64,000 nucleotides of DNA from Escherichia phage vB_EcoM_SA35RD (OL960577.1); one strand, 5' to 3'; positions 2,064 to 16,515 are shown, numbered from the stretch's first letter. The notes: generated from the letters alone by a model not told the origin. Program-made: numbers and translations.

Positions 2064-2885
2064 ATGTTTGGCTATTTTTACAACTCGTCGTTCAGGCGAT
2101 ATATCACAATGATGGGCGATTTGTTTTCAAATATCCAAGTTAACCGTCAATTGTCTACAGGCAATAAATTAATTAGAGTTCCTATCACGTATGCATCTAA
2201 AGAGCACTTTATGATGAAACTTAATAAATGGACCTCTATAAACTCACAAGAAGATGTGGCTAAAGTCGAAACTATTCTACCACGTATAAATCTCCAAATG
2301 GTAGATTTCGTTTATAACCCAACGTTTAAAACGAATATATTGAATAACTCTCTTTTGAGTAAATCGACTAAGGATATTGTAGACCAATACAACCCATCAC
2401 CAATTAAAATGATTTTTGAACTGAGCATCTTTACTCGTTATGAAGATGATATGTTCCAAATCGTTGAGCAAATTATTCCATATTTTCAGCCGCATTTTAA
2501 TACGACTATGATTGAGCAATACGGACAGGATATTCCATTTGAAAGGGATATTAAAGTCGTATGGATGGCAGCAGCAATGGATGAACAAATAGACGGTGAT
2601 AATTTATCTCGTCGACGTTTAGAGTGGTCATTAACATTTGAAGTAAATGGATGGATGTATCCTCCGGTAGGCGCAGCTGAAGGCCTTATTAAAACGACTT
2701 ATCTTGATTTTCATGCTAATGAACGAGACCTTCAAACAGCCGCCAGTGTTTTTGAATCAGTTGATACAGAAATTAAACCGAGAGACGTTGAAGCACAAGA
2801 TTGGAATGGTGAAGTTGAACAAACTTATACTCATGATATTCCAATCCCGACTCCACCAACCCCTCCTGGTCCTAGAAAACAATAA
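2064..2885 (+). CDS. 15: tail sheath stabilizer / tail completion protein gp15
   Basis: Second ATG chosen (MFGYFYNSSFRRY matches recalled T4 gp15 N-terminus; better SD spacing); track ORF starts 3 nt earlier at 2061. Confidence 0.85.
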   Translation: MFGYFYNSSFRRYITMMGDLFSNIQVNRQLSTGNKLIRVPITYASKEHFMMKLNKWTSINSQEDVAKVETILPRINLQMVDFVYNPTFKTNILNNSLLSKSTKDIVDQYNPSPIKMIFELSIFTRYEDDMFQIVEQIIPYFQPHFNTTMIEQYGQDIPFERDIKVVWMAAAMDEQIDGDNLSRRRLEWSLTFEVNGWMYPPVGAAEGLIKTTYLDFHANERDLQTAASVFESVDTEIKPRDVEAQDWNGEVEQTYTHDIPIPTPPTPPGPRKQ

Positions 2886-2894
2886 GAGGTAAAT

Positions 2895-5211
<2,317 letters not shown>

Positions 5212-7232: not shown

Positions 7233-7254
7233 ATGGGCTATTTCGGTAGCCCAT
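7233..7254 (+). terminator. stem-loop after gene 18
   Basis: 8-bp stem ATGGGCTA/TAGCCCAT with TTTCGG loop directly after the gene 18 stop. Confidence 0.5.
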
Positions 7255-7261
7255 ATAAATA
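7254..7261 (+). promoter_or_regulatory. late promoter motif TATAAATA upstream of gene 19
   Basis: Exact TATAAATA immediately after the gene 18 stem-loop. Confidence 0.55.
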
Positions 7262-7333
7262 TACTATATCGTTTAAAAATTAATTCTATGGGCATCAGGT
7301 TAATCCTAAGCCCATATTACTACAGAGGCTAAT

Positions 7334-11646: not shown

Positions 11647-13215
11647 ATGACTACTATCAAAACTAAAGCTCAGCTCGTAGACAAATGGAAAGAACTGCTG
11701 GAAGGTGAAGGCCTGCCGGAAATCGCTAATAGCAAGCAGGCTATTATCGCTAAAATCTTCGAAAACCAGGAAAAAGATTTCGAAGTATCCCCTGAATATA
11801 AAGACGAGAAAATCGCTCAGGCATTTGGTTCTTTCTTGACCGAAGCTGAAATTGGTGGTGACCACGGTTATAATGCTCAAAACATCGCAGCAGGTCAAAC
11901 CTCTGGTGCAGTAACCCAAATTGGGCCGGCAGTTATGGGTATGGTTCGTCGTGCTATTCCTAATCTGATCGCTTTTGATATTTGTGGTGTTCAGCCTATG
12001 AACAGCCCGACCGGTCAGGTATTTGCTCTCCGTGCAGTATATGGTAAAGACCCTATCGCTGCTGGTGCTAAAGAAGCTTTCCATCCGATGTATGCCCCAG
12101 ACGCGATGTTCTCTGGTCAGGGTGCTGCTAAGAAATTCCCAGCTCTGGCTGCTGACACTACTACTGTTGTAGGTGATATCTATACTCACTTCTTCCAAGA
12201 AACTGGTACTGTATATCTGCAAGCTTCTGCTATCGTAACACTTGATTCTGGTGCAACTGATGCAGCTAAATTAGATGCAGAAGTTAAGAAACAAATGGAA
12301 GCTGGTGCACTGGTAGAAATCGCTGAAGGTATGGCTACTTCTATCGCTGAACTCCAGGAAGGTTTCAACGGTTCTACCGATAACCCATGGAATGAAATGG
12401 GCTTCCGTATCGATAAACAAGTTATCGAAGCTAAATCTCGCCAGCTGAAAGCTGCTTACTCTATCGAATTGGCACAAGACCTCCGTGCAGTACACGGTAT
12501 GGATGCTGATGCTGAACTGAGCGGTATTCTGGCTACAGAAATTATGCTAGAAATCAACCGTGAAGTTGTTGATTGGATTAACTACTCAGCACAGGTTGGT
12601 AAATCTGGTATGACCCTGACTCCGGGTTCTAAAGCTGGTGTATTTGACTTCCAGGACCCGATTGATATCCGTGGTGCTCGTTGGGCCGGTGAAAGCTTTA
12701 AATCTCTGTTGTTCCAGATTGATAAAGAAGCAGTTGAAATTGCTCGTCAAACCGGTCGTGGTGAAGGTAACTTCATTATCGCTTCCCGTAACGTAGTTAA
12801 CGTACTGGCTTCAGTTGATACTGGTATTTCTTACGCTGCACAGGGTCTGGCTTCTGGTTTTAATACCGACACTACTAAGTCTGTATTTGCCGGTGTACTT
12901 GGTGGTAAATACCGCGTGTACATCGACCAGTATGCTAAACAGGATTACTTCACCGTTGGTTACAAAGGCGCTAACGAAATGGATGCAGGTATTTACTATG
13001 CTCCTTACGTTGCACTTACCCCACTGCGTGGTTCCGATCCTAAGAACTTCCAGCCGGTAATGGGCTTTAAAACTCGTTACGGTATCGGTGTTAACCCGTT
13101 TGCTGAAAGTTCCCTGCAGGCTCCAGGTGCTCGCATCCAGTCCGGTATGCCGTCTATCCTGAACAGCCTTGGTAAGAACGCTTACTTCCGCCGTGTATAT
13201 GTAAAAGGCATCTAA
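11647..13215 (+). CDS. 23: major capsid protein gp23
   Basis: 522 aa, T4 gp23 size and position; codon usage of a highly expressed gene. Confidence 0.95.
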   Translation: MTTIKTKAQLVDKWKELLEGEGLPEIANSKQAIIAKIFENQEKDFEVSPEYKDEKIAQAFGSFLTEAEIGGDHGYNAQNIAAGQTSGAVTQIGPAVMGMVRRAIPNLIAFDICGVQPMNSPTGQVFALRAVYGKDPIAAGAKEAFHPMYAPDAMFSGQGAAKKFPALAADTTTVVGDIYTHFFQETGTVYLQASAIVTLDSGATDAAKLDAEVKKQMEAGALVEIAEGMATSIAELQEGFNGSTDNPWNEMGFRIDKQVIEAKSRQLKAAYSIELAQDLRAVHGMDADAELSGILATEIMLEINREVVDWINYSAQVGKSGMTLTPGSKAGVFDFQDPIDIRGARWAGESFKSLLFQIDKEAVEIARQTGRGEGNFIIASRNVVNVLASVDTGISYAAQGLASGFNTDTTKSVFAGVLGGKYRVYIDQYAKQDYFTVGYKGANEMDAGIYYAPYVALTPLRGSDPKNFQPVMGFKTRYGIGVNPFAESSLQAPGARIQSGMPSILNSLGKNAYFRRVYVKGI

Positions 13216-13239
13216 TCTTAATTGATTAAATCTTATTTT

Positions 13240-13264
13240 GGGAGACTTCGGTCTCCCATTTTTG
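13240..13264 (+). terminator. rho-independent terminator after gene 23
   Basis: GGGAGAC-TTCG-GTCTCCC followed by ATTTTTGG. Confidence 0.7.
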
Positions 13265-13267
13265 GTT

Positions 13268-13537
13268 TTATTTCTGTGCAATTTTGATGTAAGTTTTCAA
13301 AATATTTTGCCAATTAGGCATACCTTCTTGGACATACGCTGGAGAACCGTCTTTGTTTTTGAATGATGCAAGTTTATCAGTGGCCCAATAACCTTTAGCT
13401 CGAGCTTCAGAATCAACTTTCATCCATACTTTGTTGAAGGCATTACCATTAACTTTTGCACCATATTTTTCTACTAACTTAACTGCTTCAGCTTCTAGAA
13501 CTTTTAAAGTATCTCGTAAGAAACGTGCTTTAGTCAT
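13268..13537 (-). CDS. hypothetical protein (89 aa), reverse-strand early-type gene between genes 23 and 24
   Basis: ATG at 13537 preceded by GAGGAG SD; own GTTTAC/TACTAT promoter upstream on minus strand; no recognisable domain. Confidence 0.55.
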   Translation of the reverse strand: MTKARFLRDTLKVLEAEAVKLVEKYGAKVNGNAFNKVWMKVDSEARAKGYWATDKLASFKNKDGSPAYVQEGMPNWQNILKTYIKIAQK

Positions 13538-13567
13538 TTTGTTTACTCCTCTGTAGTTGATAAGTCT

Positions 13568-13597
13568 ATAGTATCACATACCAAATACGTTGTAAAC
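13568..13597 (-). promoter_or_regulatory. early (sigma70-type) promoter for the 89-aa reverse-strand gene
   Basis: Minus strand GTTTAC-18 nt-TACTAT, then leader with GAGGAG SD. Confidence 0.55.
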
Positions 13598-13603
13598 AAT
13601 CTT

Positions 13604-13611
13604 TATAAATA
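13604..13611 (+). promoter_or_regulatory. late promoter motif TATAAATA upstream of gene 24
   Basis: Exact motif 28 nt before the gene 24 ATG. Confidence 0.6.
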
Positions 13612-13638
13612 ATCTATATCACATAAGGAAAAAATGCA

Positions 13639-14922
13639 ATGAGTAAAATCCAAAAATTATTGCGTGAATCTACAACGTCTACTAGCAACTCAATTGGTCG
13701 CCCAAATCTCGTTGCTTTGACTCGCGCTACGACTAAATTAATATATTCTGACATTGTAGCAACACAAAGAACTAATCAACCTGTTGCTGCTTTTTATGGT
13801 ATCAAATATCTTAACCCAGATAACGAATTCACATTTAAAACTGGTGCTACTTATGCAGGCGAAGCTGGATATGTAGACCGAGAAAAAATTACTGAGCTCA
13901 CAGAAGAATCAAAAGTCACACTAAATAAAGGTGATTTTTTCAAATATAATAATATCGTCTATAAAGTGTTAGAAGATACACCATTTGCAGATATTCAAGA
14001 AAGTGATCTAGAATTAGCTCTTCAGATTGCAGTCGTTCATTTAAAGGTACGGTTATTTTCAGATGCAGCGGTAACAAACAAATTTGAAAGCTCTGATAGC
14101 GAAATTTCTGATGCAAGATTCCAGATTAATAAATGGCAAACTTCAGTCAAATCTCGTAAACTTAAAACTGGCCTAACGGTCGAATTAGCGCAAGATTTAG
14201 AAGCGAATGGATTTGATGCCCCTAACTTCTTAGAAGATTTGCTTGCTACTGAAATGGCAGATGAAATTAATAAAGATATTCTTCAGTCTTTAATTACTGT
14301 ATCGAAACGTTATAAAGTTACTGGAATTACTGACACCGGATTTATTGACTTGAGTTATGCATCAGCTCCAGAAGCAGGTCGTTCATTATATCGAATGGTG
14401 TGTGAAATGGTATCACACATTCAAAAAGAAACAACTTATACTGCAACGTTTTGTGTAGCCTCAGCCCGTGCAGCTGCTATTCTTGCTGCTTCTGGTTGGT
14501 TAAAACATAAGCCAGAAGATGACAAGTATCTTTCACAAAATGCTTATGGATTCTTGGCAAATGGATTACCTCTTTACTGCGATACCAACAGCCCGTTAGA
14601 TTATGTTATTGTGGGTGTTGTAGAAAATCTCGGCGAAAAAGAAATTGTAGGGTCCATCTTTTATGCTCCATACACTGAAGGAATAGATTTAGATGACCCG
14701 GAACATGTCGGTGCATTTAAAGTTGTAGTTGATCCAGAAAGCTTGCAACCGTCTATCGGATTATTGGTTAGATATGCGTTATCAGCAAATCCTTACACAG
14801 TAGCAAAAGATGAAAAAGAAGCGAGAATAATTGATGGCGGGGACATGGATAAAATGGCAGGACGTTCAGACTTGTCTGTTTTATTAGGTGTTAAACTACC
14901 AAAAATTATCATCGATGAATAA
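13639..14922 (+). CDS. 24: head vertex protein gp24
   Basis: 427 aa (T4 gp24 size); TATAAATA 28 nt upstream. Confidence 0.9.
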   Translation: MSKIQKLLRESTTSTSNSIGRPNLVALTRATTKLIYSDIVATQRTNQPVAAFYGIKYLNPDNEFTFKTGATYAGEAGYVDREKITELTEESKVTLNKGDFFKYNNIVYKVLEDTPFADIQESDLELALQIAVVHLKVRLFSDAAVTNKFESSDSEISDARFQINKWQTSVKSRKLKTGLTVELAQDLEANGFDAPNFLEDLLATEMADEINKDILQSLITVSKRYKVTGITDTGFIDLSYASAPEAGRSLYRMVCEMVSHIQKETTYTATFCVASARAAAILAASGWLKHKPEDDKYLSQNAYGFLANGLPLYCDTNSPLDYVIVGVVENLGEKEIVGSIFYAPYTEGIDLDDPEHVGAFKVVVDPESLQPSIGLLVRYALSANPYTVAKDEKEARIIDGGDMDKMAGRSDLSVLLGVKLPKIIIDE

Positions 14923-16324: not shown

Positions 16325-16515
16325 TTCTTCACCTTTTTGTTAATCAAACGTTTACGGTATACAACTTTTTCTTTTGCTTTAAACTTTGACCGAGCTGTCT
16401 CGGCTTTAGTCCATAGTAATCCAACTTCTTTAGGTTGTAAACCAATTTTTTGAGCAATTTCTACGAATGAAAATCCCGCCTCATGTAATGTATAAACTTC
16501 AACTTCAGCTCTCAT
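16321..16515 (-). CDS. hypothetical small basic protein (T4 24.3 position)
   Basis: Start moved to the ATG at 16515 (track ORF begins at a TTG at 16521); basic C-terminus. Confidence 0.5.
   Translation of the reverse strand: MRAEVEVYTLHEAGFSFVEIAQKIGLQPKEVGLLWTKAETARSKFKAKEKVVYRKRLINKKVKK

Follow-up and report, generated by a model that had tools for sequence, protein, structure and literature searches.

The interval between genes 23 and 24

The window, by which we mean the whole 64,000-nucleotide stretch analysed, is DNA of a Mosigvirus (RB69-like T-even) phage. Over positions 12900-14000 it was 100% identical to vB_EcoM_EP32a and ~99% identical to PhAPEC2, JS09, HX01 and Shf125875. Between the plus-strand genes for the major capsid protein and the capsid vertex protein lies a minus-strand ORF of 89 amino acids, with its own Shine-Dalgarno sequence and promoter (Table 1). 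An earlier note on this DNA had described the ORF, its GAGGAG and GTTTAC/TACTAT elements, and the neighbouring terminator (gene 23) and late promoter (gene 24); each was confirmed in position.

Table 1. Genes and sequence elements in and around the 23-24 interval of the window.
Feature	Position	Strand	Source
Gene 23, major capsid protein (gp23), 522 aa	11647..13215	+	ORF listing and annotation in matching records
Intrinsic terminator hairpin of gene 23, 8-bp GC-rich stem, UUCG loop	13239-13258	+	Terminator scan
T-run of gene 23 terminator, up to 13268, abutting the stop codon of the 89-aa ORF	13239..13268 (with hairpin)	+	
89-aa ORF, ATG start, intact ortholog of RB69ORF188c/189c (PHROG 6003)	13268..13537	-	ORF listing
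Shine-Dalgarno GAGGAG, 8 nt 5' of the ATG	13546-13551	-	Sequence
-10 TACTAT of early promoter, TG-extended (TG-n-TACTAT)	13568-13573	-	Promoter scan
-35 GTTTAC of early promoter	13592-13597	-	Promoter scan
T4-type early (sigma-70) promoter, whole	13568..13597	-	Promoter scan
Late promoter TATAAATA of gene 24	13604-13611	+	Sequence
Gene 24, capsid vertex protein (gp24), 427 aa	13639..14922	+	ORF listing and annotation in matching records

The early promoter has a spacer of 17 nt in the TTTACA register, and 27 nt separate the end of its -10 element from the ATG of the 89-aa ORF; transcription is predicted to start near 13561. The gene 24 late box lies 6 nt from the -35 element on the opposite strand, which places the two promoters back to back, with the late promoter overlapping the A-rich upstream region of the early one. 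A minus-strand ORF of 46 aa (13614..13754) lies upstream of the early promoter and overlaps the beginning of gene 24; it has no support and is probably spurious.

At the other end of the interval, the terminator stem folds with -16.1 kcal/mol on the plus strand and -13.5 kcal/mol on the minus strand (z -4.3 and -5.4, respectively). It is conserved, with compensatory changes in VR7. On the minus-strand transcript the same stem begins 9 nt past the stop of the 89-aa ORF and is not followed by a U-tract, so termination there may be inefficient, and an effect of the minus-strand transcript on gene 23 at the RNA level is conceivable. A scan of the 23-24 intergenic region against Rfam returned nothing near gathering scores.

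Conservation of the 89-aa ORF and its disrupted copies

The 89-aa ORF is a true protein-coding gene under purifying selection. Its entire product (residues 1-89) aligned with positions 1-90 of the 90-position profile phrog_6003 (unknown function; E 2.9e-45), and tblastn found the ORF in 238 phage records. It is intact in ~117 closely related records, and relatives at 31-37% identity are present in ~119. The earlier note would have been refuted by a lack of coding conservation in close relatives; 236 of the 238 records hold one full-length match, and pairwise Nei-Gojobori dN/dS was 0.11-0.16 in pairs with unsaturated synonymous sites (window v L006, 0.137; VR7 v WG01, 0.110; WG01 v 04086, 0.136). 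VR7 is a Gaprivervirus (its copy is VR7ORF190c), WG01 and 04086 are Dhakaviruses, and L006 and L008 are metagenomic intermediates. In all five, as in PhAPEC2, RB69, JM10 and LF82-1, genes 23 and 24 flank the ORF, which runs on the opposite strand, and every examined relative at 31-37% identity occupies the 23-24 gap in this orientation. With one position and one orientation in three genera, Mosigvirus, Dhakavirus and Gaprivervirus, this is a long-resident syntenic gene and not a recent arrival. The GC content of the ORF (34.8%) and its GC3 (23.3%) both resemble those of gene 24 and likewise give no indication of a recent foreign origin.

More than 200 phage records already list the gene as a hypothetical protein, and the annotation of PhAPEC2 (PhAPEC2_170) equates the window ORF with RB69ORF188c. 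In the RB69 reference (NC_004928; L015 382-622) two indels break the gene into ORF188c (41 aa) and ORF189c (29 aa): a +1 indel among clustered mismatches and, ~150 nt further on, a -1 indel. Either the gene is a pseudogene in that laboratory strain or the split reflects old sequencing errors. An independent frameshift occurs in phage mogra, and the copy in 310Ecol104PP is truncated. Thus, the gene is generally constrained yet dispensable in some isolates.

An early promoter shared with T4 segD

The pattern GTTTAC-N17-19-TAnnnT matched 14 times in the 64-kb window, compared with 2.84 ± 1.67 matches in shuffled sequences, none of which (0/100) reached 14. All 14 matches are on the minus strand, and several have the form GTTTACAA...TGTGATACTAT seen in the promoter of the 89-aa ORF. 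The 13 further matches lie at 16413, 28902, 34724, 35811, 36255, 39706, 41832, 43237, 44420, 51357, 55329 and other minus-strand positions; many have in common an extended -10 element, TGTG(A/T)TACTAT, and together they can serve to map the early transcription units of the window. The promoter of the ORF has the -35 element, spacer, TG-extended -10 element, A-rich upstream region, orientation and distance to the ORF of a T4-type early promoter.

The same elements had been predicted in RB69 by Nolan et al. 2006 (PMC1524935, supplements), who listed an early promoter on the minus strand (Pe:109605, score 29.9), a late promoter (Pl:109573) and a terminator labelled '23-><-RB69ORF188c'. All three map onto the window elements by alignment offset.

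Occupied gaps were seen to have a common layout when read on the strand of the cargo: TATTTATA, which is the late box in reverse complement, is followed after 2-6 nt by (G/A)TTTAC and, ~17 nt later, by TAnnAT. This holds for the window, VR7, WG01, 04086, JM10, L006 and L008, for T4 segD, and for the endonuclease gene of Moonvirus NM4.3. The ORF promoter is thus, by its motifs and placement, a member of the phage's early class and homologous to the promoter of T4 segD. In T4 itself (NC_000866; L005 ~7234-7323), TTTACA, 17 nt and TG-n-TATTAT stand upstream of segD and abut the gene 24 late box, making this early-type promoter a candidate for segD expression. A 2010 review (PMC2988022) could identify no segD-specific promoter and considered that transcript levels were perhaps vanishingly low; the candidate promoter offers a contrasting, sequence-based explanation of how segD is expressed. 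In a T4 omics study (PMC9697503, supplements), segD was classed as 'early-RNA_middle-Protein' and SegD was detected by mass spectrometry.

From the promoter class and the analogy with T4 segD, we infer that host RNA polymerase would transcribe the 89-aa ORF in the first minutes of infection. The description of the ORF as an early-type gene in the earlier note agrees with the excess of early-pattern matches in the window, with the RB69 prediction and with the early RNA of T4 segD behind a homologous promoter. A literature search for a Mosigvirus transcriptome found none.

Occupancy of the 23-24 gap across T4-like genera

To survey the gap in T4-like genera, we joined the C-terminal 150 aa of gp23 to the N-terminal 150 aa of gp24 and searched with this chimera; where nothing intervenes, its match covers ~900 nt, and the gap length was read from any excess. 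Many Tequatrovirus genomes have an empty gap of ~80-90 bp, as do Karamvirus CC31, Klebsiella phages of the Slopek/Jiaoda type, Acinetobacter phage Acj61 and Morganella phage MP1. The gap is ~426 bp in Mosigvirus, which carries the 89-aa ORF, and ~780-815 bp in PhiZZ6, IME-CF2 and Moonvirus NM4.3, which carry a GIY-YIG endonuclease gene. It is ~720 bp in Krischvirus W115 and Delraymugoa, where unrelated small ORFs occupy it on the plus strand. T4 carries segD at the same site, as the earlier note had stated, and there the gene lies on the minus strand. An empty gap of ~85 bp in many genera, segD-type endonuclease genes in T4, Moonvirus and others and unrelated ORFs in Krischvirus support the suggestion that insertions recur at this site.

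The empty sites show what the insert consists of. In Tequatrovirus F1 and Karamvirus CC31 the gene 23 stop codon is followed by the terminator hairpin, ~17 nt and TATAAATA, and no GTTTAC or -10 element was found on the opposite strand of either gap. The gene 24 late box is invariant across all aligned lineages and is also present at the empty sites. Because empty gaps keep the terminator and the late promoter and lack the early promoter, promoter and gene together form a true cassette, which upholds the description of the locus as self-contained; judged from these alignments, the early promoter belongs to the insert and occurs only with cargo. The claim that the gene was inserted stands in one respect, that it is a cassette at an insertion-prone site, and not in another, since its long residence in three genera means that it is no fresh insert.

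Several other features of these loci were recorded. In Krischvirus W115 the gap (L012 648-1385) contains two small plus-strand ORFs (57 aa, 50 aa) as well as ~330 nt that carry no annotation but include a hairpin resembling a terminator and TATAAATA boxes. Downstream of the cassette, gene 24 is present in two tandem copies in VR7, WG01 and L006 (Dhakavirus/Gaprivervirus), compared with one in Mosigvirus and T4. In phage 04086 (OR842557; L004 3502-5083), gp23 is annotated at just 369 aa (3502-4611), and an opposite-strand 'hypothetical protein' is annotated at 4633-5046, where the remainder of gp23 would be expected; apparently the annotation is faulty, a frameshift is involved or the capsid gene is interrupted.

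Exchange of alleles between genera and linkage to SegD

Between the window and VR7, amino acid identity was 36% for the ORF, 84% for gp23 and 70% for gp24, indicating that the 89-aa ORF evolves much faster than the flanking capsid genes. L006 has capsid genes of the Dhaka/Gapriver type (91-93% aa identity) and an ORF of the Mosig type, which is 62% identical to that of the window v 27-29% to those of VR7 and WG01. The reverse holds in the LF82 series, JM10, mobillu and ATK47, whose flanks are of Mosigvirus and whose match to the window at 97-100% is confined to 13546-13660: here the ORF is of the Dhaka type, with a SegD ortholog immediately after it. This ortholog is 57% identical to T4 SegD (E 3e-86), and the ORF and segD are co-linear behind one promoter. 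The earlier note had treated the ORF as an alternative occupant to segD; that part fails, given that some phages hold both, side by side behind one promoter.

Three-way alignment placed the left breakpoint of the swaps at the common GAGGAG of the Shine-Dalgarno sequence and the right breakpoint at the common terminator hairpin. LF82-1, for example, has exactly the sequence of the window as far as the Shine-Dalgarno element, continues with the Dhaka-type ORF and SegD, and rejoins the window at the hairpin. The loci with both genes are at 1501-2430 in LF82-1 (L017), 2501-3430 in JM10 (L010) and 2501 to ~3440 in 04086 (L004), whose endonuclease gene has no annotation in its record. Breakpoints at a conserved Shine-Dalgarno sequence and a conserved hairpin are the pattern expected of recombination across conserved boundaries. 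In these alignments, the promoter with its Shine-Dalgarno sequence and the terminator hairpin delimit the exchange of ORF alleles between genera, with or without SegD. Homing by SegD with co-conversion of the adjoining ORF allele plausibly drove the swaps.

Protein family, features and predicted fold

The family to which the 89-aa protein belongs is tiny. An exhaustive HMMER search gave 8 matches at E <= 1e-3 among 1.84 billion (1.84e9) representatives, and 25 family clusters were found among 5.8 billion (5.8e9) sequences; cluster members are 51-160 aa long, with no Pfam domain and no meaningful name. One 90-aa homolog from an ENA/JGI metagenome (P0006, L006 4001-4273) is named 'NADPH-dependent curcumin reductase CurA', a clear mis-annotation.

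The family falls into three clades, the Mosig type, the Dhaka/Gapriver type and a third comprising the Vequintavirinae (rV5-like) phage ABPH49, contigs with small-ORF arrays and one siphovirus-like contig. In ABPH49 and similar contigs the homolog sits within long arrays of small same-strand ORFs; in the siphovirus-like contig it adjoins tail genes. Most third-clade copies are preceded by a sigma-70-type promoter of their own, and a GC-rich hairpin lies past the stop of each. The rV5-like copies (L018 4935-5000, L020 4945-5000, L021 and L009) also have a conserved 5' leader, GGCAGGCAATAC[A/C]GCCAGCCACC, between promoter and Shine-Dalgarno sequence; with the GC-rich hairpin right after the stop, this leader is possibly regulatory.

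Family members are ~10 kDa (10.1 kDa in the window), free of Cys and without membrane segments. The window protein has a pI of 9.8; the pI is 9.3-9.8 in 10 of the 11 members and 8.0 in P0009. Invariant residues are M1, K3, F6, G31, N32, N35 and Q70, and no conserved His, Cys or acidic cluster was found among family members, which makes an enzyme unlikely. An AlphaFold2 model built with 20 family sequences was confident (pLDDT 94.1, pTM 0.79) and predicts helices at 3-25 and 31-48, a beta-hairpin at 52-60/66-70 and a final helix at 76-88.

The profile and structure searches and the structure prediction that the earlier note had proposed thus gave a confident fold without a characterised relative. 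A Foldseek search of viral models matched a family member only, and a PDB profile search, PADLOC and NCBIfam returned nothing significant for the 89-aa protein. In the databases searched, it had no sequence or fold similarity to a characterised defence, anti-defence or takeover protein or to a solved structure. Pfam gave no GIY-YIG or SegE hit for the ORF, while the endonucleases of T4 (SegD), LF82 and NM4.3 do hit PF19835/PF01541. The Pfam, NCBIfam, PADLOC, PDB-profile and hhalign comparisons therefore agree with the earlier reading that the ORF has no endonuclease motif or recognisable domain.

Two candidate similarities were discarded. DUF4859 matched the window protein alone, below the gathering score (E 0.0029), and was absent from the other clades. 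The 655-aa protein P0013 was hit in five stretches by the exhaustive HMMER search; it is a Cyt-b5 repeat protein (PF00173, E 6.3e-47) that resembles only the hairpin motif of the Mosig-type proteins, with no hit in the other clades, and we regard the similarity as a coincidence.

Possible functions

We assign a probability of roughly 0.55 to the reading that the locus is an autonomous early cassette whose product, a non-enzymatic binder, acts as a conditionally useful host-takeover or counter-defence factor. Under this proposal, host RNA polymerase would transcribe the ORF from its own early promoter at the start of infection, and the product, a basic ~10-kDa protein predicted to form a three-helix bundle with a beta-hairpin, would bind a macromolecule of the host or of a competing phage. 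The benefit would be felt only on some hosts, and the gene would be dispensable on laboratory hosts. Four observations fit such a role: the gene diverges rapidly, is spread patchily and horizontally, is knocked out naturally in some phages, and has an early-type promoter in every context. The suggestion of the earlier note that small early proteins of this sort serve host takeover or anti-defence is plausible here. The basic charge is compatible with binding to nucleic acids as well as to proteins.

The last point leads to the most serious competitor, a regulator that binds DNA or RNA early in infection (the nucleoid, or phage or host transcripts), which we consider a minority possibility. A pI of 9.3-9.8 maintained across clades, although individual basic positions are unconserved, suggests general electrostatic binding, and size and helical architecture with a beta-hairpin would fit a small DNA- or RNA-binding protein. 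However, the searches recovered no family or fold that binds nucleic acids, be it HTH, RHH, HU/IHF or another; apart from K3 the family conserves no basic patch, and P0009 departs from the high pI. We think it improbable that the cassette serves to make an early minus-strand RNA, antisense to gene 23 or interfering with the gene 24 late promoter, with the ORF being incidental. The overlapping back-to-back promoters and the possible read-through into antisense gene 23 past a hairpin without a U-tract would suit that idea, but the low dN/dS reflects selection on the protein, the Shine-Dalgarno sequence is strong, the rV5-like and siphovirus-like homologs lie away from capsid genes, and the cargo behind the same promoter can be segD.

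Equally improbable is a selfish or neutral passenger, whether a relic of the DNA-binding domain of a homing endonuclease or a hitch-hiker linked to SegD homing. The ORF and segD have slot and promoter in common, the protein is basic and helical, and the ORF adjoins and co-transfers with SegD in LF82, JM10, mobillu and 04086. Nevertheless, hhalign gave probabilities of only 1.4% and 0.5% against T4 and LF82 SegD, on which we rejected a relic; no GIY-YIG, NUMOD or HTH motif was found; homologs occur in phages with no endonuclease gene nearby; and in most carriers, which have no endonuclease gene, the ORF is still intact under purifying selection. The position between genes 23 and 24, together with a very weak PHROG match to an internal virion protein family (E 0.13), might suggest a head-assembly or virion-associated factor, which we judge the least probable of all. 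Such a role fits poorly with the opposite orientation and an early instead of a late promoter, with homologs elsewhere in early-type ORF arrays, with viable phages that carry disrupted copies, and with absence from most T4-like genera, which build equivalent heads.

A more far-reaching version of the takeover or counter-defence proposal is tentative and rather doubtful. Here, the protein would found an uncharacterised early-effector fold family of T-even, rV5-like and siphovirus-like coliphages that neutralises a specific host defence or an essential host factor, and its rapid divergence and SegD-driven swapping would reflect an arms race with this target.

Novelty and significance

The ORF, promoter and terminator were already annotated or predicted publicly, the latter two for RB69 in 2006, and as an element this is an accessory gene of an ordinary kind whose intergenic site is plastic. 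Added here are the promoter module common to the 89-aa ORF and T4 segD, the evidence from empty sites that this promoter travels with its cargo, the allele swaps between genera that are linked to SegD, and the wider family with its confident fold, for which no known relative was found. The locus is more instructive than the protein, as one compact divergent promoter module appears with interchangeable cargo across genera. Genomes of the LF82/JM10 type provide natural examples of a homing endonuclease that may have brought an adjoining accessory allele into another genus. In itself the gene has modest value: it adds one small early protein to those known from phages, though a well-defined one with a confident fold, three clades and natural knock-outs.

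We found no paper on RB69ORF188c in the literature, and no transcript, protein or phenotype data for this gene in the literature and sources searched. The AV110 screen of Mosigvirus early proteins picked genes by T4 homology, and its Emp/Gp94 is a different protein; the 89-aa ORF has no T4 homolog and was therefore missed, which makes it a reasonable candidate for anti-defence and host-takeover screens. HIDEN-SEQ covered no Mosigvirus, and the accessory-gene paper does not mention the locus.

Comparison with known systems

RB69ORF188c/189c, JS98 ORF173c, VR7ORF190c and PhAPEC2_170 (PHROG 6003) represent the same gene at the same site and on the same strand, with the same promoter and terminator. 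The window copy is intact, unlike that of RB69, which is split into ORFs of 41 and 29 aa, and the Dhaka/Gapriver alleles are only 31-37% identical to it. The T4 segD cassette occupies the same slot in the same antisense orientation, where a homologous early-type promoter abuts the late box of gene 24 and the terminator hairpin again forms the boundary. Its cargo, however, is unrelated: SegD is a 223-aa nuclease, whereas the window encodes an 89-aa protein without a catalytic motif.

The morons of lambdoid phages are autonomous promoter-gene-terminator units between conserved late genes. Like them, the cassette has its own promoter and a trailing hairpin between conserved structural genes, is missing from close relatives and has been horizontally transferred between groups of phages. 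Unlike them, it has a strictly virulent carrier and a promoter of the T4 early class, so it would be expressed at an early stage of the lytic cycle instead of from a prophage. AsiA, Arn, Dmd and Acb2/Vs.4 are small early T4 proteins of host takeover and counter-defence, and the 89-aa protein resembles them in its size of ~10 kDa, predicted early expression, fast evolution, patchy distribution and dispensability.
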